From a virus (lineage: Duplodnaviria; Heunggongvirae; Uroviricota; Caudoviricetes): a stretch of DNA of 64,000 nt. The stretch spans positions 1 to 64,000 of IMG/VR virus record IMGVR_UViG_3300026549_000060; one strand, 5' to 3'. The notes beneath the pieces were generated by a model. It had not been told where the DNA came from and did no database searches. It was given only the letters and a program-made list of their open reading frames with translations. The first letter of the stretch is position 1. Each line of letters opens with the position of its first letter. Below, in pieces: positions 26,865 to 51,971 of the stretch. Position numbers and translations under genes: made by a program.

Positions 26865-27860
26865 CTACCAACCTATATCATTAGGATCATCAACTTTAAT
26901 CCCAAAGATATCACAAAAATTAGAAATACGATCATCAACTGCAAATTCTTGCATTTTATTATAATTAATTCTAAACTTAGTTAAATCTAATGTACCATTA
27001 GTAGGAATAGTAATACAATCTAACTTACCTTCTTTACCCATTGTACCAGATCGAACTAAATCTGTCAAGCGTCTTTGTGTATCTGAATCAAATTGACCTA
27101 TATCAATTTCTTCCAAGTCAAATCTATAGCCTCTATCCATTACTCTAAAGGTACTTCCATAAATTGCATTATATACCAACATAGATTTAACTGATCTTGG
27201 CAGTCTATCTTGGGCATAGTTTTCTTTATTCCAAGAACTTGGAATAGCACAATAAACTGTACCTGTTTTTAACTGCTCAACATATCTACCTCTATAATCA
27301 TCAATCTTAGTGGTAAGCTCTTCTTTACTGATTCCTTTCTTAAGGATATGCTCAATAAAATCATTTAACATATCTCTGCTAAATTGAGGATAATCAGATC
27401 TTACAACTTCTATACCACTAATACTGATTTTATCCAAAGGCTTTCCTTCTTTGGAAACTAACCAAATAGCATACTTCTTTTTGATTTCCAGAAACAAAGC
27501 TCTTCTAATAACAAGTTCCTGTTTAAAATTAAAGTTAAACTTTTTAGCCGAAGATTCTGTAGGAGATGTATTATGCATATTAAGAAGTTCATGAATCATT
27601 ACATTATTAATATACTGTGCTACAGATTCATTCAATTCAATAACTTTATCTATCTTTTCCTTGTCAGAAATTTCATCATAATCTTTTCCATAAATTGCTT
27701 TCAATGCATCGCCATATTTAGTAAAAATTGAATCTGTATTATGAACTAATATGTCATTTGCAAAAAAACAATGATCATCATCTGGCATTTCAATATCATA
27801 TACATCAATAGGTTCTTCTGGAGTAATCACTTCTATTGATTTAACACTCTCTATCTTCAT
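26865..27860 (-). CDS. Family-B DNA polymerase C-terminal fragment, beginning with a C-terminal split-intein half (IntC about 41 aa; 27738..27860)
   Basis: MKIESVKSIEVITPEEPIDVYDIEMPDDDHCFFANDILVHN is an intein block F/G ending in HN. It is followed by TDSIFTKYGD..., the C-extein that continues pol motif C (YGD|TDS). Confidence 0.8.
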   Translation of the reverse strand: MKIESVKSIEVITPEEPIDVYDIEMPDDDHCFFANDILVHNTDSIFTKYGDALKAIYGKDYDEISDKEKIDKVIELNESVAQYINNVMIHELLNMHNTSPTESSAKKFNFNFKQELVIRRALFLEIKKKYAIWLVSKEGKPLDKISISGIEVVRSDYPQFSRDMLNDFIEHILKKGISKEELTTKIDDYRGRYVEQLKTGTVYCAIPSSWNKENYAQDRLPRSVKSMLVYNAIYGSTFRVMDRGYRFDLEEIDIGQFDSDTQRRLTDLVRSGTMGKEGKLDCITIPTNGTLDLTKFRINYNKMQEFAVDDRISNFCDIFGIKVDDPNDIGW

Positions 27861-27914
27861 TTTCCTTCACCACCCATATAATGATTCTATCAGACTCGGC
27901 ATACTTTGTCAATA

Positions 27915-28540
27915 ATTACACAATATTCTTATTTGTAGGTCCTGTATAGTATGGGCAATACAATACTAATCAGGTATCAATTATACGATATTCTTATTTG
28001 TAAGTCCACATGGTAAAACAATTCCACTACTCCAAAAGCTCATAGTTATACGATACCCTTATTTATAAGTAACGTATAGTGAGTATACCAGAACTGAAAG
28101 AGCACGTCAAGTTATACGATACTCTTTATTTGTAAGTGTCGTATAGTGCTAAAATACTCATGTTTAAAATGTCTGTTATACGATACCCTTATTTGTAAGT
28201 ACCGTATAGTAACATCATTAAATTTCATTTTTACATCACTGTTATACGATACCCTTATTTGTAAGTACCGTATAGTATGTGATGGACCATGCAGGAAGAA
28301 GATAGCGTTATACGATACCCTTATTTGTAAGTACCGTATAGTGATGATGAGGTAATAGCAGTAATAGTTAGAGTTATACGATACCCTTATTTGTAAGTAC
28401 CGTATAGTCACCCAAATCAGCATACTCTTTAATATCATGTTATACGATACCCTTATTTGTAAGTACCGTATAGTTCTTTTTTATCGTCTGTTGTATCTTC
28501 TTTTGTTATACGATACCCTTATTTGTAAGTACCGTATAGT
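27915..28540 (-). CRISPR. CRISPR array with eight conserved 36-bp repeats plus two degenerate terminal repeats
   Basis: Repeat gttatacgatacccttatttgtaagtaccgtatagt at 28045, 28111, 28175, 28241, 28307, 28373, 28439 and 28505. Spacers are 27-30 bp. Degenerate copies lie at 27915-27950 and 27980-28015. The degenerate repeats are distal to the nuclease gene, so I infer transcription on the minus strand from 28541-28750. Confidence 0.85.
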
Positions 28541-28543
28541 ATC

Positions 28544-28640
28544 CTATACGCAAACTCTTACAAATACTGAGTTTATTCAATATTCAGTTGTAAAAAACAG
28601 CATTTTCCATACGTAAAAACAAATAAAAAGTATCGTATCC
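28544..28640 (-). ncRNA. putative tracrRNA-like / leader region carrying two anti-repeat segments
   Basis: ctatacg-caaactc-ttacaaata (28544-28566) is the reverse complement of the repeat's 3' half (tatttgtaag..cgtatag). gtatcgtat (28630-28638) is the reverse complement of the repeat's 5' part (atacgatac). The region lies between the nuclease gene and the array. Confidence 0.35.
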
Positions 28641-28751
28641 GAATAAATCCGGAGGCAGTTAATTTTCATTAACTTTATTTAAATTCACATCGCTGATTCT
28701 GATGATCTTATTTAAATGGGTTTGCCAAACTTACCCAAATACATCCCCTGT

Positions 28752-30236
28752 TTATTTAGGGAATTTAGAATACTTTAGACCTTCAATTACGTCTTTAACT
28801 CTCATCCTAACTGGATGAAATGGATGGTATCCAACCCAACTAAAATCTGGAATTGCTTTTCTCATAATACCCATAGCGCCATTTACATCAGCATTCACCA
28901 ACTTTCCAACCCCAGAAGAAAACAATCCTCTGTGAATTCTTTTACCAAAGTTAGCCTCATCTCTAGTTTCAGGGTCTTCTTTAGTAGCCAAGGGAGCATT
29001 TCTAAGATGATCTGTTTTACTAGTATAAGACTCTTCAACAATCTCGAAGCTTATGCCCCTCATTTTACACTTATATTCGAGTTTGTCAAGTAGTTTTTTA
29101 AAAGGAAAGTTAACAATAATTTGATTATTTTTATGCCCAGTATTGATCTTCTGCTTCATATCTTTATTCCAACCGCAAATAACTCTACAAATATTATAAT
29201 GGAGGCAATATCTAACAATATACTTAGTATATGCATCAACGATATAATTTATACGATTAATATGATTCTTTGTCATTGCTTCAATTCTCTTAGTAGTATA
29301 CTGCTTAGGTCTTTTCTTCCCATTTTCATCAGTAATAACTTCAATCTTATGTTTAAGTTTATCTACCATTAAATGATAAAATCTAATTTTAGATTTCAAA
29401 GCATTACCATCAAGGATAACTGGATTAAGTTTATCATCACTAGTAATTATAGTACAAAAATTTCTAATACCCAAATCAATACTAAGATATCGTTTATTAT
29501 CAAGTTTAGGAACCGATTCATTATACGTATAAATTATTTCAATCTTAAAATATCCTTTTTTAGGAATTATCCTAACTTGGTCAATTCTTTTTCCTTTTAC
29601 ATACTCCGAATTATGTGGCAATTTTTGAAGTGGGATATAAATGCTTTTATTATATCCATCCGTTCCCCTCGGCTTAGGAAACACAAGACTTCTAGTTTTT
29701 GAGTTAATTTTAATAGAAGTACCAGAAAAGTATAATGGGCACAGATCTCCTTTTTTATAAAAACCGGGCTTTCTTGGCATTCCTTTATATTTTTCCGGGT
29801 GCCTACTCCAATCCCCAAGGGATCTTCCATATGATTTTAAATTTTTAGATAGTAATGTTCTAATTACCTCTGTAGTTGCATCTCTACCTACAAGATTTTT
29901 AAGTAGTTCCCAATTACTTTTACCCTCAAGATTTTTAGTATAATACTCACCGTTCTCATCTTGTTCACTGGCATATCTCCTCAAACTCATTACTTTAAAA
30001 AAATCATCGACAGGTTTTTCAAAACCAACGTATTCGTCTGGAAACCAAGGAAAAGACTTACCAGTTTCTTTTTTATATTGTTCTCTAACCGGGTCATAAG
30101 CTTCTTTAAACTCATAAGCATAGTACAGTGTCTGATTATACAAATTCTTAGCAACAGTACATGCTTCTACAAGCCAATCATATACTTCTTCATTTCCAGG
30201 TCTTCTATAAAAGTTAAAACTAGCAGTAAGTTGCAT
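28752..30236 (-). CDS. TnpB/Cas12-like RuvC nuclease (494 aa), the CRISPR-associated effector candidate
   Basis: RuvC-I LSIDLGIRNFCTI, RuvC-II ISFEIVEESYTSKT and RuvC-III NADVNGAMGIMRKA, with a TnpB-like WED region (KGKRIDQVRIIPKKGYFKIEI). No cysteines between RuvC-II and RuvC-III. RBS gaggggg. Confidence 0.8.
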   Translation of the reverse strand: MQLTASFNFYRRPGNEEVYDWLVEACTVAKNLYNQTLYYAYEFKEAYDPVREQYKKETGKSFPWFPDEYVGFEKPVDDFFKVMSLRRYASEQDENGEYYTKNLEGKSNWELLKNLVGRDATTEVIRTLLSKNLKSYGRSLGDWSRHPEKYKGMPRKPGFYKKGDLCPLYFSGTSIKINSKTRSLVFPKPRGTDGYNKSIYIPLQKLPHNSEYVKGKRIDQVRIIPKKGYFKIEIIYTYNESVPKLDNKRYLSIDLGIRNFCTIITSDDKLNPVILDGNALKSKIRFYHLMVDKLKHKIEVITDENGKKRPKQYTTKRIEAMTKNHINRINYIVDAYTKYIVRYCLHYNICRVICGWNKDMKQKINTGHKNNQIIVNFPFKKLLDKLEYKCKMRGISFEIVEESYTSKTDHLRNAPLATKEDPETRDEANFGKRIHRGLFSSGVGKLVNADVNGAMGIMRKAIPDFSWVGYHPFHPVRMRVKDVIEGLKYSKFPK

Positions 30237-30298
30237 TGCCTTGGTTTCCCCCTCAATTGTCTTTTGTTATAACATAACTATACTATATAAAACATTTA

Positions 30299-31408
30299 TC
30301 AAGAGGCTTTATTAAAAACCTTATATCCATTACGAGCTGTCTTATCTTCACATAAGATAATAAATTTAGGATAGCTATTACTATTAAAATAAGTTGCTCT
30401 CTTACAGTGCTTACACGATAAGCACTGAATCATCACTGGTGCCTTTTTCCTTATATGGTAGTCCTGAAATTGTGGGCAAAAATTAACGTTTGATGTAACA
30501 ATCGACCTTGGAAATTCGTTTCTAAAAAATGTCCACTGTCTTGTTAGATCTAATCCATTAAAATTTTTATTTTCTAATATATTCTTAAACTTCTTTTGTT
30601 CCATATATTCTATAATGTCAGTCTCTTTTAAAGCATCTAATCCCTCATCAGTTAGATTGTCATAAAACCTATCTACATACCATTTAACTCCGTTTGTAAC
30701 TCGAAAAGCGTATTCATAAGATCTATCACAAACTAGGTCGCTCTCACCACTTCTATGAATCCAATTGCATGGAATACTGCCGCTTAAGTATGCCTGTTTT
30801 AATTCGTCATATGTAGATTCTCTATTTACTTTAGATAAGTCATACTCTACAACATAAAAATTATTAGTATCTATAGATTTAATTAAATCTAGTTTTACAT
30901 CATCTACTCCATGGGTTACTGTTACTTCAAGATACACGCTACATGGAGAGCTATTAAATCCAAACATTTCCTCATAACTAACATCATAGCATGTCAAATC
31001 GGGTCTAATATATTTCCCATTAGCACAATTTAAATTTTTTTCAAGATAACCCTTATTAAATTTATAAAAATTTGATTCTTTAATCCTAATATATGATGTG
31101 CCCATACTAAGCGTATTAGGATTTATAATATTACCATTCCAATCAATATCTAATTCAGGCATCCTACATAGGCCTGTTTCCATAATAATCTTTTTCATGC
31201 CTAAATGTAAATTAGTCTCTCCATGAACATAAACTGAAGCTGGACATTTACTATTCGGTAAATGTGAAAAATGATGACCAACAATATTACCTTTTTTAGC
31301 TACTAAAGGCTCCCCGCATATAGGGCAGATATAATTATGCAACCCAGACACTACTTCAGAAATATTCTTAATGCTACCGTCTATCAAACAATATTCTAAC
31401 TGAGCCAC
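30299..31408 (-). CDS. CoiA-like protein (competence-protein-CoiA family; nuclease-related)
   Basis: N-terminal YICPICGEPLVAKKGNIVGHHFSH matches the CoiA CPxCx..GxxxxxHFAH motif. Confidence 0.45.
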   Translation of the reverse strand: MAQLEYCLIDGSIKNISEVVSGLHNYICPICGEPLVAKKGNIVGHHFSHLPNSKCPASVYVHGETNLHLGMKKIIMETGLCRMPELDIDWNGNIINPNTLSMGTSYIRIKESNFYKFNKGYLEKNLNCANGKYIRPDLTCYDVSYEEMFGFNSSPCSVYLEVTVTHGVDDVKLDLIKSIDTNNFYVVEYDLSKVNRESTYDELKQAYLSGSIPCNWIHRSGESDLVCDRSYEYAFRVTNGVKWYVDRFYDNLTDEGLDALKETDIIEYMEQKKFKNILENKNFNGLDLTRQWTFFRNEFPRSIVTSNVNFCPQFQDYHIRKKAPVMIQCLSCKHCKRATYFNSNSYPKFIILCEDKTARNGYKVFNKAS

Positions 31409-31460
31409 AGCATATACCCTCTTTTCATTTATAAACTCTAGTTTATAATATATCTAATTA

Positions 31461-32171
31461 TTAAATTTTCTCCTTAGGGCAATCCTTAGTCCTATGCTTT
31501 TCAGTGCATTTTCCAAACCAGCACTTAGGACCACAACCAATAATCAACAAAGGAAACTGATTCTGGAAGATAATATAGATCCTATCAGCCAATTCTCTAA
31601 TACCACTTTGAGCTCTCATACACATTCGCAATTCCATAAAGTGCCTAAGCTCTCTTAGATTCATAGTCATAACCAAAGAAGTCTGAGTAGCATTAGGAAG
31701 AATCTCTCTAGCATCTTCTTTAGGAATTCCATCTTCAATATATGCATTATACAAATCAAATGTATCCTTAAGATGCTGTTCAAACAAAGCCTGTGCATGA
31801 GGATTATTTTTAATTGATTCTGGGATAGTAAACTCTTCAGGTCGCATCGTAGTATATCTTTGACTTCTCTGAGAATAAGAAGCAATCCTATGACGAACAA
31901 GCTGATGGCTAACACTTCTACTAATACCTTCAATAAAAAAGGTAAAATTAGCATGTTCAAGTGGAGATTCATGACCATTTTCCAGAAGCATTTTTACCAT
32001 CTTGTCTTGATACTCTTTATTTAAACACTTCTCTTTCAATTTGTCAAGAGTCAAATCTGAATAACATGTGGCAGCAGCTAAAGTAATTACAAATTCAGGA
32101 TCCTCAGTATTACTAATCAAAGTTACATTCATAATCGTCATCATCCCTTCTGATATCATATTTAAAGTCAT
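31461..32171 (-). CDS. thyX: flavin-dependent thymidylate synthase ThyX
   Basis: ThyX signature RHRIASYSQRS (RHR-X7-S) together with the overall ThyX-like sequence. Confidence 0.8.
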   Translation of the reverse strand: MTLNMISEGMMTIMNVTLISNTEDPEFVITLAAATCYSDLTLDKLKEKCLNKEYQDKMVKMLLENGHESPLEHANFTFFIEGISRSVSHQLVRHRIASYSQRSQRYTTMRPEEFTIPESIKNNPHAQALFEQHLKDTFDLYNAYIEDGIPKEDAREILPNATQTSLVMTMNLRELRHFMELRMCMRAQSGIRELADRIYIIFQNQFPLLIIGCGPKCWFGKCTEKHRTKDCPKEKI

Positions 32172-32544
32172 TACCTAGGTAATCACCATAACTATCATCA
32201 AATTCATCAGTTTCTAGCAAAAACTTATCTGATCTAAAATAAACTTCATCTTTAATGCGTTCTTGTTTATCTTCAATAAAAGAGCACAAATATGGGTCAT
32301 CATCATTAAAATGTCTTACAATTGATTCTAGGATATAATATTGTTTTCTTTGTGAATCATTCATACAATCAATACAAACATCTTCTTCAAAATCTTTTCC
32401 AATATCAGATTCATATAATTTAGTAGCCAGTTCAGCAATACTTTCTACAGTTTTCTTATTAAGATCTGTATGTTTTTGAAGTGCATTATCATCAAACTTA
32501 GCATATTCATTAAGAACATCTTTTTTAGAAATCATCATTATCAC
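32113..32544 (-). CDS. hypothetical acidic protein
   Basis: ORF. Confidence 0.4.
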   Translation of the reverse strand: MIMMISKKDVLNEYAKFDDNALQKHTDLNKKTVESIAELATKLYESDIGKDFEEDVCIDCMNDSQRKQYYILESIVRHFNDDDPYLCSFIEDKQERIKDEVYFRSDKFLLETDEFDDSYGDYLGNDFKYDIRRDDDDYECNFD

Positions 32545-33205
32545 CTCTGCTCATTTGTGAAAAAACATCAGCCATCCCATCATCATAATGACCTTCCAAA
32601 AGGTCAATAGCTCTATCAACAGCTTTTTGATCTTTAATATCTCTACTAACTTCAGTTAATACTGCACAAGCTTTTTGAATTATTTCATCATCATATTGAT
32701 GAGAAGTTATTTCGTGGAAATATTTATTTGATCTACTAACAAATTTAATCAGTGTATTCTCATTAAACTTTTTAGATTTAATTTTAGTAACTGGATCAAT
32801 AAGGCTTTTATAAACTTTAATAAAAAATTCTTTATCAATAGGGCCTTCTACAATAGGTTCTATAGGTTTATTAAAAGTACCATCTTTCTTTTTCTGCTCA
32901 ATAATCTGCTCTTCAGTATGATTCTCTAGAATATACTGAATTCTAGCTTCAAGTCTTTTTCTAAGAGTAGGATCTTTAGGAACATTTTCCTGAATAGCTC
33001 TAAGAATACAAATCTCTTTAATTTGCTTAGGTAAGTACTTTTTATCTTCAGGCATATTTGGAAGTGTTTCTGGATTCTGAAGATATTCATTTCCTTTAGC
33101 AGTCATAGCTCTAATAACTGGTCCTTGGAGTTTAGTAGAGGTTACCTGGGCAATCTGATTAAATTTTCTATAGTGTGACAATACATTACCTTGTGTTACT
33201 TGCAT
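32525..33205 (-). CDS. hypothetical protein
   Basis: ORF. Confidence 0.4.
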   Translation of the reverse strand: MQVTQGNVLSHYRKFNQIAQVTSTKLQGPVIRAMTAKGNEYLQNPETLPNMPEDKKYLPKQIKEICILRAIQENVPKDPTLRKRLEARIQYILENHTEEQIIEQKKKDGTFNKPIEPIVEGPIDKEFFIKVYKSLIDPVTKIKSKKFNENTLIKFVSRSNKYFHEITSHQYDDEIIQKACAVLTEVSRDIKDQKAVDRAIDLLEGHYDDGMADVFSQMSRGDNDDF

Positions 33206-33531
33206 TCACATTCCCTGCCTTTTAAAATGATAGACATATTGTCATAAGCAGAATCCAGAATTAATCCCAAATCATGTATATATGCAGCTATACATTCTTC
33301 AAAAGCTTTATAGATACTAACTTCTTTTTTACGTTGATCAGATAATTTAAAAAAATTATCCAGTTCAGTTTGATCAAGATTTTTAGGATTCTCAAGAAAT
33401 CTATTAGCATAATCCACAATATCTTGTATCAATTCTTTTGGGAGATGATCTCTAGTAGTTATAGAAGATTCATTATCTGAATCATAATTACAATATACCC
33501 ATTCATCAATAACGTCATCTCTGGTTATCAA
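33196..33531 (-). CDS. hypothetical protein
   Basis: ORF. Confidence 0.4.
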   Translation of the reverse strand: MITRDDVIDEWVYCNYDSDNESSITTRDHLPKELIQDIVDYANRFLENPKNLDQTELDNFFKLSDQRKKEVSIYKAFEECIAAYIHDLGLILDSAYDNMSIILKGRECECK

Positions 33532-33694
33532 TATAAGTATCTCCTTCTAATATCCTCATTTACCCAATTCTTTCTAAACCAAGTATCATCATCTAAATGA
33601 ACCTTATCATATTCACACAGCTTATTCCAAATAGATTGGATAATCAACAGCTCTTTCTCAGTCTTACATGGCATAAAATCAAATAGTAATTGTG

Positions 33695-34075
33695 TCATCG
33701 TTCTGTAAGGGGTCGTTCTGTATAAAAGTTAGAAGTATTTTCTGATTTAATAACTCTAACTGCATCATCATAAGTTTTATCTTTAAAGTATTTCTTATAT
33801 TTTTCCATTTTCTGTTCAAGTTCACCAGGTCTAAGTCTAACTTCTTTTTGATTAACAAATACCTTAGGCTTAAGAGTAGCTCTATCAACTACAATAATAT
33901 ATGATGGAATTTTATCGCTAGGAAGTTTCTGAATAGCTTCTTTCAAAGCTTCATAATGTGCTTTTACTCCAAATTCAGAATATGGTTTATAGATATCCTC
34001 AGCAATTCTGCTGTCCATTCCAAAATACATAACATCAAAATGACCTGCACCAGTAACTACTTTTGTTTCAGACAT
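33695..34075 (-). CDS. hypothetical protein
   Basis: ORF. Confidence 0.4.
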   Translation of the reverse strand: MSETKVVTGAGHFDVMYFGMDSRIAEDIYKPYSEFGVKAHYEALKEAIQKLPSDKIPSYIIVVDRATLKPKVFVNQKEVRLRPGELEQKMEKYKKYFKDKTYDDAVRVIKSENTSNFYTERPLTER

Positions 34076-34154
34076 TTAATCATTGCTCCTTTCAATTTTA
34101 TATAAGGAGTATATCAGAAAATCAAAGCCATGTCAATATAAAAAATCTCTGAGA

Positions 34155-34781
34155 TCAAGAGACCTCAGAGATTTGTTTATTTTCATTAGCATCTTCTTTT
34201 TTAGTGGTTGCTTTTTTTCTTTTAGCCTTTGTTACAGGAGCTGCTAATGGTTCTGGTGCTGATTTCATTTTCATTGCTAATTCTTCCATAGTAGGTAATG
34301 GCTTTTTAGGCATCTTAGGCTTCTTAGGAGCTTGTCTATCTAAGGCAGCCATTTCAGCTTCCAATTGTTTAACTTGTTCGTCAATACCTACTACCTCAGG
34401 AAACATTTCTTCACTAGATTTAGTTCTAGAGATTCCCTTTGGAAGTTTTTCTTCTTCTTTTTTAATAGCATCTTTTTGAGATGTCCAGGTAGGATCGAAA
34501 GGATTACTATTCTTAGAAGTAATAGCTCTGACACCAGAAGTAAGTTTTTCTACTGGCTTAGGTGACTCCTCCTCAATACTAAATGATGAGAAATCTTCTA
34601 CTGGTTCATCCTTAACACTAAGTGTATTAAAATCTAATGGAGATGTAGTAGTAGCTTCAGCTAAAAACTGTTTAAACCTTTTATTCATCAGATCAACTTT
34701 TTTAGCCAATTTCATCTGATTAGTAGCTATTACTTTCATAAGCTCCATTATATTTTTTGACACTGAGTTCATCAAAATCAC
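34155..34781 (-). CDS. hypothetical Lys-rich protein
   Basis: ORF. Confidence 0.4.
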   Translation of the reverse strand: MILMNSVSKNIMELMKVIATNQMKLAKKVDLMNKRFKQFLAEATTTSPLDFNTLSVKDEPVEDFSSFSIEEESPKPVEKLTSGVRAITSKNSNPFDPTWTSQKDAIKKEEEKLPKGISRTKSSEEMFPEVVGIDEQVKQLEAEMAALDRQAPKKPKMPKKPLPTMEELAMKMKSAPEPLAAPVTKAKRKKATTKKEDANENKQISEVS

Positions 34782-35113
34782 TCAGCTTTCTTTTTCTTAG
34801 GAGGTCTACCTCTTTTTCTCTTAACTGGAGCAGGAGGAGTAACCTCTTCCTTAACTTCTTCAACAACAGGTTTTTCAACAGGTTTTTCAACAGGCTTTTC
34901 AGCAGGTTGTTCTTTGACCTCTTCAGTCTTAGTCTGCTTACTAGCAGCCTCTGCTTCAAAATCCTCTTTTGTTTTAATTGGAAACTTGTAAATATGTCCT
35001 TTATCATTAGTTCCAATCAAAACACTATCATTACTAAGCGGAGCTTCAGCCAAACCCATTCTTCTGCAAATTTCCAAAGCTTCAGCTCTGGTATATTTTT
35101 TCAAATTAGCCAA
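34778..35113 (-). CDS. AT-hook DNA-binding protein with PVEK tandem repeats
   Basis: C-terminal KRKRGRPPKKKK (GRP AT-hook core). PVEKPVEKPVEKP is encoded by a 15-bp triple repeat at about 34864-34905. Confidence 0.45.
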   Translation of the reverse strand: MANLKKYTRAEALEICRRMGLAEAPLSNDSVLIGTNDKGHIYKFPIKTKEDFEAEAASKQTKTEEVKEQPAEKPVEKPVEKPVVEEVKEEVTPPAPVKRKRGRPPKKKKAE

Positions 35114-35143
35114 TTAGATCTTCCTTTCTATTATAGTTTATTT

Positions 35144-35683
35144 TTATAAAGTCCAACTCTTTAAAGTATTGGCAAACCAAACTTCACCATTTGGAGTAAA
35201 CATGTCCACGATATCAACACTATTATTACCAGAAGTACCTGGCTCAATACCATTCATCCAAACAACTGAATCAGGCCAAGTAATCCCTTTAGAAGGATTC
35301 TTAATAATCACTTTGATATGCCTTGCTAAAGTACTTCTGTTATTAGTAATTGATGCATCTGTAGGCACATCCAAAATAGATATTGTAACCGAACCAGCTA
35401 ATACTAAATAAAACATATCATAATTGTTAGTATTCAACTGGATAGAACCCATAGCGTTCTCATCTATAGAACACATTCTAAAGCCAGCAAGTCTATTAAT
35501 ATCTGCTAAGGTAGTAGGTCTGGCATCATTACTAACAGTTAAATTAGCCAATTCATGTGTATGATTTCTAAACTGACTAGCAGACACTTTCTCATTAAGT
35601 TCCTGAGTAATCTTTGTCTCCAATTGATTATGGTATCTCTGTAGGTTTTCAAAAGTTACTAAATTATCACTCATAATAATCAT
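35144..35683 (-). CDS. hypothetical protein
   Basis: ORF. Confidence 0.4.
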   Translation of the reverse strand: MIIMSDNLVTFENLQRYHNQLETKITQELNEKVSASQFRNHTHELANLTVSNDARPTTLADINRLAGFRMCSIDENAMGSIQLNTNNYDMFYLVLAGSVTISILDVPTDASITNNRSTLARHIKVIIKNPSKGITWPDSVVWMNGIEPGTSGNNSVDIVDMFTPNGEVWFANTLKSWTL

Positions 35684-35693
35684 TCTCCTTTCC

Positions 35694-38273
35694 TTATAAG
35701 GTGATTAGTTGGTCTGTTACAACTAATTCTGTTGGTTTAATTATAGTTTTAACATTATTTCTCATTACTACCAAACTATGATCTTCAGTTACAGTGACTG
35801 TTTTTCCAGATTCAGTAGTAATCTTATACAGTTTCTTATTAGTTTTATGCTTCATCAGATACCTTGGGAAATAAAGTCTGTCATCATATCCAAGTACGCA
35901 TTTATTAGGATTCTGAATATAATTTTTTCCGAGATAATGCCACACTTTATTATCCGAAGCACACATATCCCAAAGTTCTTTAATAGTTATATTACCTTTA
36001 CCAGTTCTGATTAAAGAATCTCCAGTAACTGAATCTCCATAAATTACATTTGGTAGAGCTTGTTCTGATTGGTAATCCCAATCAAAAGGAATATCTACAT
36101 GGTCAAATTTATTAGATTTATTTTGAATCATTTGATTAATGCAATTATTAGCAACTACTGCGGCGATTTTAGCAATTTCTCTACCAGTAGAAGTAATACT
36201 TCTGGCAACCTCATAATCATACAATCTGAATCTAATATTGGACTGACCACCATAAAGAGAATTAGTAATGATCTTAACTGTTTTCTGCATAGTATCATAT
36301 CTGTCAACTAGCATTTGGTCTTTACCAATATTATCCTTCATAAGATCTTTATACTCTTTTCTCTTTTTAATGAGCATATCTACAATATCATAAAGAACTG
36401 ACTGCTTATCTTCATGCTTCTTAAAGATAGTGCCAATCTGGGTAATAATATACCCATTCTTAAGCATTCTTTCATGAAAACTTTTAGCAGACAATTTATA
36501 CAATCTCTCAATACCTTGAACTTTCAAATACAAACTTACATCTGTATTGGAATTAACAAATTCTTCTTTATTAAAGATATATTGTCTAGCAGTATCTGTA
36601 TCAACTTTTCCTACATAGGTATCTGCACTAATGTTATATCTTGCCATAATGTATGGATAAAGAGAAGTAAGATCCAAATCACCCAACCAATCATGTACAC
36701 CGCTAATTGGTTCTCTAACATAAGCACCCGCAAACTTTTTCTTCTCAATTCCAGCTTTAACAATTTTGGCTACTTTATCTCTATCCATAAGATACTCATA
36801 AAGAATCCCATCACAAATATGTAGAGTAGTATAAATACTATCCCATGAGATATTAGCCAACTGGACTATACTAAAATTAAGGTCAATATACTTCAACTTT
36901 TCATCCAATTTTCTTACAAGATGAACGTCGTTAATATTGTATGCAATAAACCTTTCAGGTTCTTCCCTAAAGATTTTATCCATGCCATCTTCAGTATCAA
37001 GTTTAGTAATACCCAACTCAATTTTAGAAATAGTTCCAAGCTTATAATTCTCTTTTTTACCAAGAGTTCTTTCCTTATAGCATCTTTGATAATCAAGTGC
37101 TACAGAATAACCAATATGAGGAATACAATAAGTAACTTCCTCTTCATGTTTATTCATAACTGTTTTATATTCAATTTCAAAAGTTTTATTATGAGCCAGT
37201 TTAGGATGTTCAATTCCTAAAAATTCTGCTCTATACTTAATATAAGGTAAATCAAATTCATCACTATTCCACCCAGATACTAGATCTGGATCAAATTCTT
37301 TCAATAAACTGAAGAACTTAAGGAACATATCACTTTCTTTATCAAAGATTTCTACATTGAAAATACACTCATCTTTGTAATCAAGATATTCCTTAATTTG
37401 TTCAGTATTAATTTTAGCTTTGTTTAAATTATAGACCAAAGTATAATATTTGTCAGTATAATTATCATACAAAGTAATCAAGTTAACGGGAATAACTCTA
37501 GCTGACTTCTTAATATCAGCAAAGTCAATAATACCATATCCTTCTTGATACAACTCAATATCAACATAATTTACTCTAAGTTTATAATGACCAAGATTAT
37601 CTTTGTTTTCTTTTTTCCAAAGATAATTCTTATGAATAGCCAAATTAAAATCTACATTATAAATAGCTTTATAAGAAGATTCTGACTGAATTTGTTCAAT
37701 AATGTATTTTCTTTTACCATAATGTACCAGTTCACCTTTTAATCCTGCAATATCATGAACATCTAAATAATCATCTTTACCGGTATACATCATAACCATA
37801 TCATCAGTCTGAGTAATATATCTTTTATCACCAACTCTAATAACATATGCAAATTCCTTATTCACATAGTCTGAATAGAAGTTAAACAGCATAGGCTTAG
37901 AATACCCATCAGTTGGCTTAGAATCTTCTTTCTCTTTAGAGCTATACAATTTATATTTACTCTTTTTATTAATAACTACATCAGTTTCTTTCTTTTTAGG
38001 TTTTTCTTCAATTTTGGGAAACACGGGTTTAACAGGAATATAATTAAACTTATAAATAGTGTTATACTTCTTATGTACTTTAGCAATATCTTCAATAGAA
38101 TACTTATACGCATAAGGATTATTGAAAAGCTGATTCAATACAATAGATGTTTCAAAATCTTCTTCAGCTAAACTTAAAATAGAGGAAATCTTAAGAGACT
38201 TACATTCCTCTGGAAATGGCACATTTCCTTCAGTAGCTAACCATCTTATATATGTAGTTAGTGGTGAAGCCAT
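35694..38273 (-). CDS. Family-B DNA polymerase N-terminal fragment (3'-5' exonuclease and polymerase motifs A, B and the YGD of C), ending in an N-terminal split-intein half (IntN about 112 aa; 35697..36032)
   Basis: Motifs YVDIE, YNINDVHL, GAYVREP, DLTSLYPY (motif A) and KIITNSLYG (motif B), then ...NVIYGD|SVTGDSLIRTGKG (intein block A) ... TVTEDHSLVV (block B TxxH) and a stop. Confidence 0.85.
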   Translation of the reverse strand: MASPLTTYIRWLATEGNVPFPEECKSLKISSILSLAEEDFETSIVLNQLFNNPYAYKYSIEDIAKVHKKYNTIYKFNYIPVKPVFPKIEEKPKKKETDVVINKKSKYKLYSSKEKEDSKPTDGYSKPMLFNFYSDYVNKEFAYVIRVGDKRYITQTDDMVMMYTGKDDYLDVHDIAGLKGELVHYGKRKYIIEQIQSESSYKAIYNVDFNLAIHKNYLWKKENKDNLGHYKLRVNYVDIELYQEGYGIIDFADIKKSARVIPVNLITLYDNYTDKYYTLVYNLNKAKINTEQIKEYLDYKDECIFNVEIFDKESDMFLKFFSLLKEFDPDLVSGWNSDEFDLPYIKYRAEFLGIEHPKLAHNKTFEIEYKTVMNKHEEEVTYCIPHIGYSVALDYQRCYKERTLGKKENYKLGTISKIELGITKLDTEDGMDKIFREEPERFIAYNINDVHLVRKLDEKLKYIDLNFSIVQLANISWDSIYTTLHICDGILYEYLMDRDKVAKIVKAGIEKKKFAGAYVREPISGVHDWLGDLDLTSLYPYIMARYNISADTYVGKVDTDTARQYIFNKEEFVNSNTDVSLYLKVQGIERLYKLSAKSFHERMLKNGYIITQIGTIFKKHEDKQSVLYDIVDMLIKKRKEYKDLMKDNIGKDQMLVDRYDTMQKTVKIITNSLYGGQSNIRFRLYDYEVARSITSTGREIAKIAAVVANNCINQMIQNKSNKFDHVDIPFDWDYQSEQALPNVIYGDSVTGDSLIRTGKGNITIKELWDMCASDNKVWHYLGKNYIQNPNKCVLGYDDRLYFPRYLMKHKTNKKLYKITTESGKTVTVTEDHSLVVMRNNVKTIIKPTELVVTDQLITL

Positions 38274-46157: not shown

Positions 46158-46235
46158 TGGTCGGGTATGGAGGATTTGAACCTCCGACCCTCTGCTCCCA
46201 AAGCAGATACGCTAACCAGACTGCGCTAATACCCG
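46158..46235 (-). tRNA. tRNA-Pro (anticodon TGG), CCA encoded
   Basis: Manual fold: acceptor cgggtat/atacccg, anticodon stem tctgc/gcaga, loop tttggga, T-arm ggagg-ttcaaat-cctcc. Confidence 0.75.
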
Positions 46236-46240
46236 TTTAG

Positions 46241-46777
46241 TTACTCTTTAAAATACAAATCCCCAGTTTTATCTCCATCAATCTTATGCAGAAATACCCA
46301 ATCTAAAAACTCACAAGCAGTAGATCTTTCTTCTTCAGAACAATCACTACCATTAATATACTCATCAAACCATTTATAAAACAGTTTCTTTCTATTGAAA
46401 GTTGCATTAATACAACTACTAAGCATATCCAAGTCAATATCTTTAAGATCTGTTTTACCGGCGTTTTTCATTACAGCTTCAATAGTTTCCCTGATAGCCT
46501 TAACATTTTCTGGCTGATAATAACGTTCGGCATTATTAGTCACATTTTCACATTTATTTATAGTCATATTCATATTTGTTATCCCACTTTCTTTATATTG
46601 GTAATAATGATTGGGATACTTAAAGACCAAAACTCTAGCTTTATAGGGAGAGGTTTGATCTCTATCCCAATAAACTAGTTCCATTTCTAAAAGCTTTCTA
46701 GCTTCAAATGGAGTAATCTTGACACTATCTTTTTTAAACTCTGAATCAAATAACTTAATTGTTTTCTCCATACTCAT
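46241..46777 (-). CDS. hypothetical protein
   Basis: ORF. Confidence 0.45.
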   Translation of the reverse strand: MSMEKTIKLFDSEFKKDSVKITPFEARKLLEMELVYWDRDQTSPYKARVLVFKYPNHYYQYKESGITNMNMTINKCENVTNNAERYYQPENVKAIRETIEAVMKNAGKTDLKDIDLDMLSSCINATFNRKKLFYKWFDEYINGSDCSEEERSTACEFLDWVFLHKIDGDKTGDLYFKE

Positions 46778-47078
46778 TATGGGTAGTCTCCTTTATATAA
46801 GGGTGATTGTCTCTGCTTTTTTAATCAAGAAAAAACAGGTCAAAAAGAAAAGGTTTGAGGGGAATTTCACCCCTCTGAGAGGTATTAAATTTTAAACTAA
46901 AAAGCCATAGGAATATACGCAGCTTTATAAGTCTGTTGCTTAGTTGATCAGTATCTAAGCTATCTGGAAGATGCGAAGACCTATGGTTAATTCTTTAAAA
47001 GGCTATAGGAATATCAGTACTCAAATGATCAGTTTAAGTAGTCTATCTGATAGACCTATAGTCAATGCTTATCTATTA

Positions 47079-47687
47079 TTAGGGCCACTCACCAAGAGGC
47101 TGTCCAAGAAGACCCTGCTGAGGAACCCCTTCAAGAATCTCCTTGAATTCAATCTTATCGTAATTGGAATACACACTGATAAGAACAACCCTGTTAGGAT
47201 TACCCTTAGTCATAGCCTCAGGAGAAAGCACCATCTCTGTTTCACCAGCAAAGACGTACTTCACACCATTGACAACCTGTGTACCAATAAGTGCAAAAAC
47301 TGAAACATTACTACCAACAAATCCAGCAAGATTATCCTCAAGAACCTTCATGGCCTCTTCAGGAATATCAGTAGTAGGATTAATCTGAACCCCACCCATC
47401 TTACCAGAGTCAGACAGGACATTGGTAATCTCCACAATACTGAACTTATCATCCTTCTCATTAAGAACAATAAGAACCACATTATGAACATCATTTCCAG
47501 TAATCATGGTCTGTGTAGCAAGAATAGCATGATTAACTCCAGAAACAACCTTACTACCAAGGTATGCAATCACATTATACTCAGCACCAACCATATTACC
47601 AAAAATCTCTGTAAATGCGGAAGCAACCTTCTGAGGAAGCTTACCGGGAACAACATGAATCTCATAACTACCCAACATAAATATCAT
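47079..47687 (-). CDS. hypothetical protein with two internal repeats of an approximately 85-aa domain, in a GC-elevated (about 42%) region
   Basis: Repeated ...AFTEIFGNMVGAEYNVIAYLGSKVVSGVNHA... / ...EDNLAGFVGSNVSVFALIGTQVVNGVKYV... Confidence 0.45.
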   Translation of the reverse strand: MIFMLGSYEIHVVPGKLPQKVASAFTEIFGNMVGAEYNVIAYLGSKVVSGVNHAILATQTMITGNDVHNVVLIVLNEKDDKFSIVEITNVLSDSGKMGGVQINPTTDIPEEAMKVLEDNLAGFVGSNVSVFALIGTQVVNGVKYVFAGETEMVLSPEAMTKGNPNRVVLISVYSNYDKIEFKEILEGVPQQGLLGQPLGEWP

Positions 47688-48207
47688 ATCCTTTCTTATT
47701 TATTTTTATCAAAAATAAAAGCTTTTATCAACATTACAATTATAAAAATTATAACTACGTATTGTATATATGGCAATAACTTTATTGAACTATCAAATAC
47801 TCCTGATAACCAGGAAAAGAATACATCAAACATACAATGTATGCACTACCAAGTTATGTTTAGTAGTATCTACTTTCTGTGGATAAGGATCTTCATTATT
47901 CTTAAATCTCTGATACTGAAGATCTTTATACTCCTTCTTCTTCACCATTGTTCTAGTACCTGTACTGTCTTCTGTAAAATACCATTCAGTCATGTTATAC
48001 ATCAATCCTTTCTTAAGGCATATCAACTTCGTCTACATAAAGAACAATTTCCTCATTACCATAGCTATCACCAGTTGCTGAAATACTTGATTCATCATAA
48101 AGTTGCTGAACTGAATCAAAATAGCTCTCAGAAACCTCAACTCTATGCCCTTCATCAGTTTTAAGATAGTATTTAGCAGACATATTAACTACACCCTTTC
48201 TTTTCTT

Positions 48208-49044
48208 TTATGTTACTGTAAATGTTTTTGAAATATCGTATTGTTCGTTCTGCCACCACGCATCCATTCCTACTCGAAAGTCTATACGGACTGTATGTTC
48301 ACCAACATCACTTACAGAGGCAGGGTCTGGAGCTGTCCAACTTCCAGAAGCAGTTAAACTATTATAAGTCTGAGAATATACCCGATTTTCATCATAGTAT
48401 AAAGTTATAGAATTAAGTTGATATCTAGTTTGTTGAACTGTATACGGAACAAAATCCCATTCAACATATGCACTTTCACCAACCGATATATTATTAACCC
48501 TTAACACCATACCCTTGTATCTGCCTTCACCTTCTCTATACGAAATATCAACGGTCCTTACGTTATCATTGTTGTCTTCTCTAACATAGGTGTTAAACAA
48601 ATCTATTATACGATTATAACAGCTATCTGCCGGTCTACTTGATAAATAAATACTATAAAATGAATCTTCACCATAATCATAATAGGTTAAAGTTTCTCCG
48701 TCATAATTAAATGTTTGATCGATATATGGAAAATAAATAGAAAAAGAGCCTAAATGGGCTATGTCAGGATCAGAGCAATATGCTCTTAGTTCAAACCATC
48801 CCATATCGGGAGGAGTATTATAATAAGGATCGTCTCCATTGCCATATGTACCGTAAGCTGACGCAGCTGGTTTACCAATTAAACGATCATTTATAACTAA
48901 AACAATTTTAAATTTTTCAGATTTATTTTTAATAACAAACCCAACACTAATAGTCGAATCATAAGTTTGTGCTTCCGCAAAGGTCATTCTGTATATCTTA
49001 TACTCATCTTTCCCCCCATTCAACAAAAGAGGTTTTGTAAACAT
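48208..49044 (-). CDS. hypothetical protein
   Basis: ORF. Confidence 0.45.
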   Translation of the reverse strand: MFTKPLLLNGGKDEYKIYRMTFAEAQTYDSTISVGFVIKNKSEKFKIVLVINDRLIGKPAASAYGTYGNGDDPYYNTPPDMGWFELRAYCSDPDIAHLGSFSIYFPYIDQTFNYDGETLTYYDYGEDSFYSIYLSSRPADSCYNRIIDLFNTYVREDNNDNVRTVDISYREGEGRYKGMVLRVNNISVGESAYVEWDFVPYTVQQTRYQLNSITLYYDENRVYSQTYNSLTASGSWTAPDPASVSDVGEHTVRIDFRVGMDAWWQNEQYDISKTFTVT

Positions 49045-49113
49045 TGATAAACACTCCTTTTATAAGTTTTATATTTGTAAGAACTAGGTAAACTAGTTTA
49101 AAAGTCAAAGGTA

Positions 49114-49189
49114 TGGTGGACTCGCTGGGGTATGATCCCAGAACCTGGCGATTATAAGTCGCCTACTCTACCAATTGAGCTACAAGTCC
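49114..49189 (-). tRNA. tRNA-Ile (anticodon TAT), CCA encoded, with a non-canonical T-loop
   Basis: Acceptor ggacttg/cgagtcc, anticodon stem ggcga/tcgcc, loop cttataa, T-stem ctggg/cccag with loop atcatac (A54/T58 covariation). Confidence 0.65.
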
Positions 49190-49198
49190 ATGTAATAA

Positions 49199-49285
49199 TG
49201 GTGCCCAGGGGGGGACTCGAACCCCCACGCCAGAGATGGCAAGGGATTTTAAGTCCCTTGTGTCTACCTATTCCACCACCTGGGC
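49199..49285 (-). tRNA. tRNA-Leu (anticodon TAA), class II long variable arm, CCA encoded
   Basis: Anticodon stem aggga/tccct, loop cttaaaa, variable arm gccatctctggcgt, T-loop ttcgagt. Confidence 0.7.
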
Positions 49286-49307
49286 ATTTAACTATTTTTA
49301 TATTTTA

Positions 49308-49384
49308 TGGAGCCCCTAGGAAAAGAGTTGAACTTCCATCACTTCTTTACAAGAGAAGTATAATAGCCGTTATACTATAGGGGC
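49308..49384 (-). tRNA. tRNA-like gene, possibly tRNA-Thr (TGT) or a pseudo-tRNA
   Basis: Acceptor gccccta/taggggc plus tCCA. Anticodon stem cttct/agaag with loop cttgtaa. The T-arm is irregular (ggaag-ttcaact-cttttcc, with G-U pairs or extra bases). Confidence 0.4.
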
Positions 49385-49553
49385 AAATAAATCTTATTTG
49401 TAGTCTACATCACTCAAAAGATTTAGGAAAGTTCTATACTATATTTTACTTCTGATTAACAGAGAGTGCTCCATCCTTAGCTATAGTATAGATAGATGGT
49501 TAAAAGGTGTAGATCTTTCAATAACTACTTACTGAAGACCTTTATCCAGGAAA

Positions 49554-49582
49554 ATTATATCAGCAGTATAGTTATTTGTCAA
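49554..49582 (-). promoter_or_regulatory. sigma70-type promoter (TTGACA-N17-TATAAT) driving the tRNA cluster
   Basis: Minus strand: tacTTGACAaataactatactgctgaTATAAT. Confidence 0.55.
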
Positions 49583-50043
49583 GTACAAAACTGACTCACT
49601 TATTTATATGATCTACATGACCCTAAGAATAGGTCATTTGTGTAGTACTTTCGATGACTTTAATGGGCGTAATATATGTACTACAATCCTTTTCCCCTTT
49701 CAATCAAAGGATGACAGTTTCTTACCACTTGCAGTAACCTGACAACTCTCCGGAATCCTCCACTCAACACTGCTCTAGCTTCTACTAAAGGTGGCTCAAC
49801 ATTAAGTTTCATAGGATAACTACTACCTCAAGTGTAGTAGGTTCTAACAGTTTTTATAAAGTCTATCCCTTAGCCAAGGTAATTTTTATTGAGGGTTACA
49901 TTCCCTAATAGACTTCTATCCTACTTATGCCAAATGAAGACATTACAATCTTCTAAGTAGATCAGCCTTTATTTACTGTTATTTCCCAAGCACTGATTTG
50001 GGTGAAAGGATTTTAATTGTAACTCATTTTAGGTTACAATTTA

Positions 50044-50117
50044 ATTTTTAATGGCTCCTCCTGGTGGTTACGCTCCACCGTATACGGTTTAACAGACCGC
50101 CACTCTACTATTGAGTT
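50044..50117 (-). tRNA. tRNA-Asn (anticodon GTT), CCA encoded, with a non-canonical T-loop
   Basis: Acceptor tcctcct/aggagga, D-arm actc/gagt, anticodon stem gcggt/accgt with loop ctgttaa, T-stem ggtgg/ccacc with loop agcgtaa (A54/T58). Confidence 0.55.
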
Positions 50118-50133
50118 AAGGAGGAATTAGAAC

Positions 50134-50228
50134 TGGCTCTGGAGCCCCGATTCGAACGAGGATGAGAAAGGAGGTCCCTTTACTTACTGATCCAAAGTCA
50201 GCTGTTTTTCCAATTAAACTACTCCAGA
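50134..50228 (-). tRNA. tRNA-like gene with a Gln anticodon (TTG) and an unusually long (about 24-nt) variable region, CCA encoded
   Basis: Acceptor tctggag/ctccaga + g + cca. D-arm gttt/aaac. Anticodon stem gctga/tcagt with loop ctttgga. T-arm cctcg-ttcgaat-cgggg. The 95-nt length is atypical. Confidence 0.45.
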
Positions 50229-50372
50229 GTTAAATTATCAAGGGTTCACTTAAGACTCGCACTTAAGATCTTCAGCTTTCACATTTTCCTAATTATGCTC
50301 TAGAAGCATACATAGAAAACACTACTCAGTGAGATTTTGCTATTTAAACTATGAACCATGTCCAACAAAGAT

Positions 50373-50401
50373 ATTAAAGCATACTGACAAGAATTTGTCA
50401 A
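50373..50401 (-). promoter_or_regulatory. sigma70-type promoter (TTGACA-N17-TTTAAT) upstream of the Gln-like and Asn tRNAs
   Basis: Minus strand: cTTGACAaattcttgtcagtatgcTTTAAT. Confidence 0.4.
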
Positions 50402-51093
50402 GAGGTGATTTTAAAAATTTTATGGCAGGTCCACTACCGCTTGCAGATAGTTCTGAAGTTTTGGAGACTCCTGTTTTACTACATAAACTATGGACCCATC
50501 AATATTTGTTCAAAAAATTTTAGGTGTGGAGAGAAGTAATGAGGTACTCCTCCCCACTTCAAAGGAGAACGATCATGAGCGGAAAAATATATAGATACTT
50601 GATAGCTGTGAGGTATGTTCAGACTCAGACTCTGTTTAAATAGTACAGACCTTTATTCACAGATTTACATAATAATTACCAGCTACTTACTATTAGCGAA
50701 CGAGTTTACGTTATATTAAAGCTAATGTGATTTCACTAAGTAAATCTTAAGTGAGGTTCGACCAAGCCTCTTCATAGGGTCTAACTACTAAATCAACAAT
50801 ACTAACTACTCCCTACTCAGTAAAGTCTTACTCAATCCAAGATAAAATAGTCATCAATCAAAGACTATTATTTGAAATTAGATGTAAGGCTTTCTAGTCT
50901 CAGGAAAATTGAGAGAAAAGCATTGTTATTATATCGTCACATTTCAGGTGTGAAAATATAATTAGATAACTTTGCGGTCATCTAAATATTAGGAGAGTAT
51001 CTTTCTTATTTTTACATGAATAAGATACTCAGAAAATCATGAAACAGAGTATTTAGAACTTTCACCAAGTATCAAATCTTTAAGTACTAAAAC

Positions 51094-51762: not shown

Positions 51763-51770
51763 ATAATAGT

Positions 51771-51912: not shown

Positions 51913-51971
51913 TTAAATTCCTCCTCATAATAAATACTAAGTCTATAAACTCTTACTAATACTACTTTAGT

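Follow-up and report, generated by a model that had tools for sequence, protein, structure and literature searches.

In fractured genes, a split intein is combined with a free-standing homing endonuclease encoded between the two gene halves (Dassa et al. 2009, PMC2677866). A split family-B DNA polymerase (PolB) has been described in the Pseudomonas jumbo phages PA5oct and MIJ3, as has the intein of Salicola phage SCTP-2 (Imam et al. 2019, PMC6892783), and the passage of PMC2677866 that cites Petrov and Karam reports a split gp43 without a split intein in T4-related Aeromonas phages. We analyzed 64,000 nucleotides of a virus of the Caudoviricetes (IMG/VR record IMGVR_UViG_3300026549_000060, positions 1 to 64,000; this whole stretch is called the window), in which a PolB gene is divided by a split intein into two genes, polN and polC, with a multi-gene gap between them. 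The anatomy of this locus, its conservation and the swaps of its cassettes were observed directly. The locus is probably an expanded, clade-wide fractured PolB gene, with an old split intein, a core of inherited genes and a hotspot for nuclease genes beside the C-terminal intein half (IntC).

As in classical fractured genes, the break divides an essential replication gene, where it stands, into two open reading frames (ORFs) of the same orientation, one ending in the N-terminal intein half (IntN) and the other beginning with IntC. Likewise, the halves enclose genes for presumably selfish nucleases, the cassette brings promoter elements along with it, and the arrangement is known mainly from phages. 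Classical fractured genes, however, hold one endonuclease gene with spacers of 27-51 nt, whereas the gaps here measure 3.7-7.8 kb and contain a multi-gene core, which includes the gene for ThyX, and a separate nuclease slot. The window has 11 genes and a CRISPR array in 7.8 kb, and even the smallest gap of the clade, in relative L009, measures 3.7 kb. Unlike classical fractured genes, the window holds a CRISPR module in its slot.

The other described systems differ in the position of the split or in what lies between the halves. PA5oct and MIJ3 resemble the window in that a split intein with Ser1 and similar blocks (SV.G., TEDHS, ILVHN) divides a jumbo-phage PolB within motif C. In these phages the order is polN-endonuclease-polC with a single HNH/Hef-like endonuclease (~1.7 kb) as the gap, the insertion lies two residues downstream (YGDTD/S, compared to YGD/TDS here; slashes mark the junctions), and polN identity is ~31%. 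The intein of SCTP-2 occupies the identical insertion site (IIYGD/SVTHD...NILLKN/TDS), with Ser1 and Thr+1, and represents the "unsplit" state: a contiguous cis-splicing mini-intein of ~163 aa with no intervening genes, in a polymerase of 26% identity. According to PMC2677866, Nanoarchaeum equitans PolB and cyanobacterial DnaE are also intein-split replicative polymerases encoded by separate genes with independent expression signals and fixed in their clades, but with halves scattered in the genome. In the window and in all relatives, by contrast, the halves share a single locus and have kept their original order and orientation.

Relatives were sought with both the nucleotide and the protein sequences. 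A nucleotide search with the locus gave no match among GenBank phages, and no close relative of polN, of the nuclease or of the CoiA-like protein described below was found in IMG/VR. A protein search recovered an identical polN on contigs up to 288 kb, plus 20 relatives at 38-85% identity. As the identical polN lies on contigs of up to 288 kb, the window derives from an uncultivated jumbo phage with a genome of ~288 kb. In a sister clade at 40% identity, a uracil-DNA-glycosylase domain (Pfam UDG) is fused at the N-terminus of polN (L012, 10001-13267, P0014; also P0018 and P0021).

The polymerase is broken inside its catalytic YGD/TDS motif, giving polN (35694-38273, 859 aa) and polC (26865-27860, 331 aa) on the minus strand. 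Pfam profiles DNA_pol_B_exo1, DNA_pol_B and the N-part of Intein_splicing matched polN, while polC matched the C-part of Intein_splicing and profile positions 231-354 of DNA_pol_B; IntC alone scored 18.4 bits on Intein_splicing, under the whole-domain cut-off. At the junction, polN reads ...NVIYGD/SVTGDSLIRT...TVTEDHSLVV...LITL and stops at a TAA (35694-35696), and polC, from its ATG at 27860, reads MKIESV...VYDIEMPDDDHCFFANDILVHN/TDSIFTKYGD (...ILVHN/TDSIF). When the intein is removed from the junction, the catalytic YGDTDS is therefore rebuilt, and the predicted spliced polymerase has 747 + 290 = 1,037 aa. The nucleophile at intein position 1 is present (YGD/S748) and is Ser in 21/21 relatives; the T-x-x-H of block B (TEDHS) occurs in the window and 19/21 relatives; and blocks F and G end in His-Asn followed by Thr+1 (VYDIE...HCFFANDILVHN/T), with F, G and the terminal HN kept in every relative. 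IntN and IntC, when fused, matched solved inteins (9hth PolB, E 1.5e-15; gp41-1, 4.7e-6; PolB16; NrdJ-1). As judged from these sequences, the two halves of the split mini-intein should join polN and polC by protein trans-splicing.

The polN of all 21 relatives (38-100% identity) carries an IntN end at the same YGD/S site, and all polC heads that were recovered, those of the window and of seven relatives, have ...ILVHN/TDS. Since split site and splicing residues are the same clade-wide, the split is old and the splicing residues are under purifying selection. Were the intein halves relics, with the polymerase fragments forming a non-covalent heterodimer without splicing, as split gp43 does in some T4-like phages, one would not expect Ser1, T-x-x-H, the terminal His-Asn and Thr+1 to be conserved in a clade whose identities fall as low as 38%. 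Furthermore, the break lies inside catalytic YGDTDS, where an unspliced insert of 112 + 41 aa would be hard to tolerate. The heterodimer has a precedent in the non-spliced gp43 of T4-like phages, as far as that passage of PMC2677866 describes it, and the histidine of block B is lost in relatives P0019 and P0020; nevertheless, we consider it very unlikely.

The preliminary description of this DNA had placed the gap exactly: from the polN stop to the polC ATG it spans 27861-35693 (7,833 bp) and contains 11 genes and a 10-repeat CRISPR array (Table 1). It was also right that the gap genes are co-directional with the polymerase, as every real gene is on the minus strand, like all genes from ~7 kb to ~55 kb of the window. 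Its count of about seven further unknowns corresponds to g179, g208, g126, g56, g111b, g226 and g143. Among the genes it named, ThyX, the AT-hook protein, the TnpB-like nuclease and the array were recovered, and the CoiA label applies only through an N-terminal zinc-ribbon domain. A 108-aa ORF at 28112-28438 was rejected as an artefact of the CRISPR repeats. The GC content of the gap (0.29-0.35) is the same as that of its flanks.

Contigs of the relatives were compared with the window proteins by tblastn. Between the polymerase halves, g179, the AT-hook gene, g208, g126, g56, g111b and thyX occur in the same order in L003 (77% polN identity), L007 (84%) and L008 (78%). The gap of L006 (68%) retains g179, the AT-hook gene, g208, g126 and ThyX, that of L009 (49%) retains g179, the AT-hook gene, g126 and ThyX, and in L012 (41%) ThyX is still between the halves. 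ThyX is thus the most deeply conserved resident, present in the gap of every relative whose contig spans polN to polC. The conserved core accounts for ~4.2 kb of the gap, whereas L003, L006, L007, L008, L009 and L012 all lack g143, the CoiA-like gene, the nuclease and the array. Gap sizes were 3.7 kb in L009, 4.0 in L008, 4.5 in L024, 5.0 in L006, 5.5 in L003 and L007, 6.4 in L012 and 7.8 in the window. The first core gene, g179, which in each close relative comes directly after polN, gave only weak matches, to PHROG "tail fibre" families (E ~3e-4), which is odd within a replication module.

These comparisons bear on a scenario of the preliminary description, in which an ancestral cis-intein was disrupted in this lineage when all 7.8 kb inserted as a single mobile cargo island. 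All 21 relatives, down to 38% identity, share the split, and the core is syntenic at 49-85% polN identity; ~4.2 kb is found in order in relatives without CRISPR, TnpB-like and CoiA-like genes, so the gap is not present or absent as a unit. Co-directional gap genes, cargo of a mobile-element type (TnpB-like nuclease, CRISPR array, nuclease-like protein) and the contiguous intein at the same site in SCTP-2 would fit such an island. However, target-site duplications at 27861 and 35693, which had been proposed as a check, amounted to chance-level 7-8-mers, and at four candidate boundary pairs neither target-site duplications nor inverted repeats exceeded chance, with only 7-8-mers as in random local pairs. 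Similarly, no integrase, transposase (TnpA) or recombinase was detected among the gap proteins with Pfam, PHROGs and NCBIfam; the TnpB-like protein counts as a nuclease and not as a transposase. The proposed search for relatives with a contiguous intein yielded the distant SCTP-2 (26% identity), while all 21 polN relatives are split. Gene order largely gave the outcome that the preliminary description had named as refuting: relatives share the split with unrelated slot genes (none in L009) and no sign of insertion, although they have the core genes in common. With a syntenic core, no boundary repeats and no GC shift, a single cargo-island insertion that split the intein is not supported, and we regard it as most improbable.

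The relatives differ mainly in the stretch that runs from the ThyX stop (31461) to the polC promoter (27912-27884). In L009 this slot is empty except for a 133-bp spacer; in L003 and L007 it holds mutually related unknown genes, in L006 five reverse-strand genes, in L008 an HNH_3/NUMOD4 homing endonuclease, and in L024 a CoiA-like gene as sole occupant. L024 and L008 are 97.6-98.5% identical on both sides, and the whole cassette between them differs, from the 3' end of thyX to nt 15 of polC. HNH_3 endonucleases lie in or near the slot in L008, L021 and L023. The window slot contains two nested cassettes, the CoiA-like gene and the CRISPR module. The preliminary description had offered as an alternative that the split-intein junction acted as an insertion hotspot; this is supported for the stretch from the ThyX stop to the polC promoter, where near-isogenic phages swap cassettes, and not for the junction as a whole. 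Homing endonuclease gene (HEG) islands (Barth et al. 2023, PMC10448857) similarly place nuclease genes beside essential phage genes, with sharp recombination breakpoints between near-identical phages, but among the occupants here are an orphan CoiA_N family and an RNA-guided nuclease accompanied by a CRISPR array.

The CoiA-like family comprised only three clusters among 5.8 billion proteins, including that of the window. Both clusters with readable surroundings, those of the window and L024, are in the slot, and an L025 copy of the L024 protein is followed by the next ORF at the same 46-bp spacing. RPD...LEVT motifs noted by eye in the CoiA-like protein are suggestive only. On its sequence and position, the protein is a candidate free-standing homing-type nuclease, with nuclease activity predicted. 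The CoiA-like cassette of L024 ends with a TTGACA-N17-TATAAT promoter driving polC (6890-6950), and in the window a degraded version of it (TTGATA...TAGTTA) lies at 30236-30300, now before the nuclease gene. The degraded promoter suggests an order of events in which a CoiA-like cassette was already present and the CRISPR module then inserted between it and polC. At the other edge of the slot, the ThyX of L021 (2870-4645) has 591 aa and holds an intein (faint Pfam LAGLIDADG_3) at ...ELRMC/C...SGN/CRAQSG; an HNH endonuclease gene directly follows it.

The nuclease of the second window cassette passed the curated TnpB model NF040570 (guided_TnpB) with 112.9 bits (cut-off 100) and failed the Cas12f2 model (37.4 bits, cut-off 450); PADLOC models of Cas12u3 and Cas12f gave weak matches (E 1e-9 to 1e-12). 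A single-sequence search of PDB returned no significant match to solved Cas12 or TnpB, and a profile of the nuclease and its homologues matched solved TnpB and Cas12f structures. The catalytic RuvC residues (Asp, Glu, Asp) are intact, with D254, E401/E402 and D450 unchanged across 20 homologues. Outside the clade, the nearest homologues are TnpBs of the ordinary type, ~410 aa long and 33-36% identical. The gene is single-copy in the window, with no TnpA and no transposon ends.

The CRISPR array of the preliminary description is present, and extends beyond the tandem-repeat call (28173-28544) to 27916. Six perfect repeats are followed by four that are increasingly degenerate toward polC. As the degenerate repeats are at the polC end, the leader is on the nuclease side and the array is read in the same direction as the genes. 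No adaptation genes (cas1, cas2, cas4) accompany it. A full-length anti-repeat at ~28605-28640 is complementary to nearly the whole repeat, with a second, partial one at 28554-28572. This region, which resembles a trans-activating CRISPR RNA (tracrRNA), had a fold z-score of -2.9 relative to shuffled controls and is conserved with L022 for ~165 nt beyond the nuclease stop; Rfam gave no match in the tracr and array region. In L023 a different, 28-nt repeat array ends directly at polC and has its own anti-repeat, and a third repeat type, again matched by an anti-repeat, occurs in L021 and L022, the L021 contig ending inside the first repeat. In each of the four lineages (window, L021, L022 and L023) the anti-repeat lies between nuclease gene and array, and in the latter three it changes together with the repeat; a tracrRNA role is predicted for it. 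A 17-nt sequence resembling the repeat, upstream of the nuclease gene, lacked counterparts in L021, L022 and L023 and was dropped as chance.

The module could also be read as an IS200/IS605-type transposon, TnpB with its guide RNA, whose decayed ends mimic an array. The best family match is indeed guided_TnpB, the nearest homologues outside the clade are ordinary TnpBs, and cas1, cas2 and cas4 are missing. Nevertheless, ten regularly spaced 36-nt repeats with unique 27-33-nt spacers, and an anti-repeat between gene and array that changes with the repeat in L021, L022 and L023, argue otherwise, as do the failure to find TnpA or terminal repeats and a nuclease ~80 aa longer than typical TnpBs. 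We find the transposon explanation hardly credible. The module instead resembles phage-encoded miniature type V systems, namely Cas12f/V-U, the Cas12 hacker (bioRxiv 10.1101/2025.01.20.633832) and Cas12r of Thermus phages (bioRxiv 10.64898/2026.04.20.719267). Alike are the small TnpB-like RuvC effector, the tracrRNA-type anti-repeat, the array without adaptation genes and the presumed role in mobile-element conflict. In contrast to them, the window effector fails the Cas12f2 model and sits in the homing-endonuclease slot of a fractured polymerase gene.

Several observations concern the spacers. L014, which has identical polN, nuclease and polC, lacks five leader-proximal spacers (L014 19500-20100 compared to window 28211-28541), and keeps one perfect repeat and four old spacers. 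We rejected the missing spacers as proof of active acquisition, as assembly collapse across identical repeats explains them equally well; the difference is either a real polarised gain or loss of spacers or such a collapse. Spacer 7 (TTGACGtgctctttcagttctggTATACTc, window 28081-28110) is in its own right a near-consensus promoter with an extended -10. It also has an 11-nt core, TCTTTCAGTTC, in common with the first spacer of L022 (5895-5924), and the two may be overlapping protospacers of one target.

Homologues of the nuclease occupy the same slot in L022 (85% identity), L021 (77%) and L023 (52%). Up to the nuclease ATG, L021 and L023 share 96% identity; beyond it, replacement affects the N-terminal half of the nuclease as well as the tracr region and the repeat type. 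The C-terminal RuvC halves (L021 6145-7632, L023 1432-2814) are 78% identical in DNA, while N-terminal halves, tracr regions and repeats are unalignable; the break point appears to fall inside the effector gene.

Transcription signals were predicted across the gap. The two best coding-strand intergenic promoters with an extended -10 are those at 34136-34108 and 27912-27884, and the two best promoters of L007 lie at equivalent positions (the g126 one at 11756-11784). A predicted terminator and promoter inside the gap start a new transcription unit, and polN and polC are predicted to be in separate units. The polC promoter is aligned and conserved in position in L003, L006 and L007, which have no array, and in L007 a strong terminator lies just before it. 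No terminator was predicted between array and polC in the window. Read-through from the array into polC, as the preliminary description proposed, is accordingly possible; however, polC has its own conserved promoter, and its expression therefore need not depend on the array.

Table 1. Features of the split polymerase locus in the window (all on the minus strand)
Feature	Position	Strand	Basis or remarks
PolB N-extein, aa 1-747, exonuclease domain and palm to YGD	36033-38273	minus	Pfam; YGD codons end at 36033
IntN, 112 aa, SVTGDS...TEDHS...LITL, plus TAA	35694-36032	minus	Intein_splicing profile positions 8-93
g179, core gene, directly after polN	35144-35683	minus	tblastn, 31-51% identity, same position in L003, L006, L007, L008, L009
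AT-hook protein g111, EKPV repeats, KRKRGRPPKKKK	34778-35113	minus	Translation; 12-nt tandem repeat; syntenic homologues, 33-77% identity
g208, lysine-rich core gene	34155-34781	minus	Syntenic homologues, 32-76% identity, L003, L006, L007, L008
Predicted intrinsic terminator, 14-bp stem	34174-34143	minus	Terminator prediction
Promoter TTGACA-17-TATACT, upstream of g126	34136-34108	minus	Promoter prediction
g126, core gene	33695-34075	minus	Syntenic, 35-78% identity, down to L009
g56, small core gene	33528-33698	minus	52-91% identity, L003, L007, L008
g111b, core gene	33196-33531	minus	37-58% identity, L003, L007, L008
g226, semi-variable, second minor variable patch	32525-33205	minus	64% identity in L003; weak in L007; absent in L006, L008, L009
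g143, lineage-specific small gene	32113-32544	minus	Homologues only in near-identical contigs
ThyX, flavin-dependent thymidylate synthase, left edge of variable slot	31461-32171	minus	Thy1, 226 bits
CoiA_N-domain protein, 369 aa, slot occupant 1	30299-31408	minus	Pfam CoiA_N, 41.5 bits (cut-off 26.3)
TnpB-derived, Cas12f-like nuclease, 494 aa, slot occupant 2	28752-30236	minus	NCBIfam guided_TnpB
Leader and tracr-like region	28542-28751	minus	Inverted repeats relative to the CRISPR repeat
CRISPR array, 10 x 36-nt repeats ACTATACGGTACTTACAAATAAGGGTATCGTATAAC, 9 unique spacers of 27-33 nt	27916-28541	minus	Repeat analysis
polC promoter TTGACA-17-(TG)TAGAAT, right edge of slot	27912-27884	minus	Near-consensus, extended -10
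IntC, 41 aa, ...VYDIE...HCFFANDILVHN	27738-27860	minus	Intein_splicing profile positions 121-155
PolB C-extein, 290 aa from Thr+1 of TDS, rest of palm and thumb	26865-27737	minus	DNA_pol_B positions 231-354

An expanded fractured gene would make the gap a mosaic, in which an old, vertically inherited stretch of replication and nucleotide metabolism (the core from g179 to ThyX) is joined to one hypervariable slot. The slot would correspond to the place of the free-standing homing endonuclease in classical fractured genes, and would turn over by recombination between co-infecting relatives. Nuclease genes may persist there because they lie beside an essential, highly conserved gene, a position that would let them spread or exclude rival genomes in mixed infections. 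The CRISPR module would serve conflict between phages or other mobile elements. A more specific idea, to which we give only a modest chance, is that the TnpB-derived CRISPR nuclease took over the homing-endonuclease niche beside IntC and works as a programmable nuclease for homing or exclusion. In mixed infections it would cleave the DNA of co-infecting relatives or of other mobile elements, and repair from the CRISPR-bearing genome would then carry the module, together with its linked polC allele, over to the rival. If true, such a programmable homing nuclease would be a direct evolutionary bridge from TnpB-style selfish homing to CRISPR-style defence.

Certain results weigh against the reading of the locus as an expanded fractured gene with a nuclease hotspot. 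The joining of polN and polC by trans-splicing is deduced from sequence, and two distant relatives, P0019 and P0020 (38% polN identity), have TEDES instead of TEDHS in block B; with the histidine lost, the intein of this branch may be weakened or inactive. Pfam and NCBIfam identified no canonical homing-endonuclease family in the window gap, only the CoiA_N protein and the TnpB-like nuclease. The CoiA-like protein itself had no nuclease domain match in Pfam, NCBIfam or PDB, and its structure model, from a 3-sequence alignment, reached a predicted local distance difference test (pLDDT) score of 35 and was unusable. None of the 19 spacers of the window, L022 and L023 had a target in the window, in the fetched loci including alternative alleles, or in GenBank phages, and individual spacer cores matched only the arrays themselves in IMG/VR, JGI metagenome contigs and GTDB genomes. 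Because no spacer target was found, we infer the function of the array. Furthermore, the relatives are mostly short metagenomic contigs, and gain and loss cannot be ordered on a tree. Finally, the nuclease modules of the window and L022 share 80.5% nt identity, compared to 80.2% for thyX. As the module is as diverged as ThyX, vertical descent with loss elsewhere fits as well as horizontal gain for this pair.

This last result bears on whether the CRISPR/TnpB-like module entered the slot early and is ancestral to the subclade, the other members having lost or overwritten it, with mainly loss and not repeated gain. The equal divergence of module and thyX agrees with that history, as does the finding that in all four lineages with the module it lies directly upstream of polC. 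However, the deeper branches L009 and L012 are without the module, L021 and L023 are swapped abruptly inside the nuclease gene despite 96% identical flanks, and core genes of L022 and L021 are ~88-91% identical to those of L007, which has no module. We therefore think an ancestral module improbable, and for the slot of the expanded fractured gene we infer turnover, whichever the direction of gains and losses.

Elsewhere in the window, seven tRNA genes form a cluster on the minus strand (46158-52069), one of which (50242-50335) has a CTA anticodon (amber suppressor; labelled tRNA-Pyl by ARAGORN). This prompted a scan for stop-codon recoding, which was rejected: TAG read-through merged no ORFs in the window, and polN ends in TAA. 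In a scan for TGA read-through, the extra ORFs appeared mostly to be short extensions or overlapping or antisense frames. A patch of 42-47% GC in this ~30% GC genome (3217-4450, plus strand) has the look of a separate insert that was acquired recently; it encodes an AAA_28 (NadR-like kinase) protein and a protein with a CYTH domain, both on the strand opposite to that of the main gene block. At 54254-54398, near the strand switch at ~55 kb where GC skew changes sign, a 72-bp tandem repeat is present in two copies (87% match).

Taken with the described systems, the clade of the window adds to a natural series of change in fractured genes, from a contiguous mini-intein (SCTP-2), through a homing endonuclease alone (PA5oct), to a gap of several genes in which a nuclease slot persists. 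Over evolution, the space between the halves of a split-intein gene can become ordinary gene space, with a recombination hotspot retained at one edge. Naturally split inteins of the Ser1/Thr+1 type are sought for protein ligation under oxidising conditions, and the clade is a source of many natural variants of them. A 494-aa effector, predicted to be tracr-dependent, that sits in a homing-endonuclease slot and is module-swapped between near-identical phages provides a test system for programmable selfish or competition nucleases.

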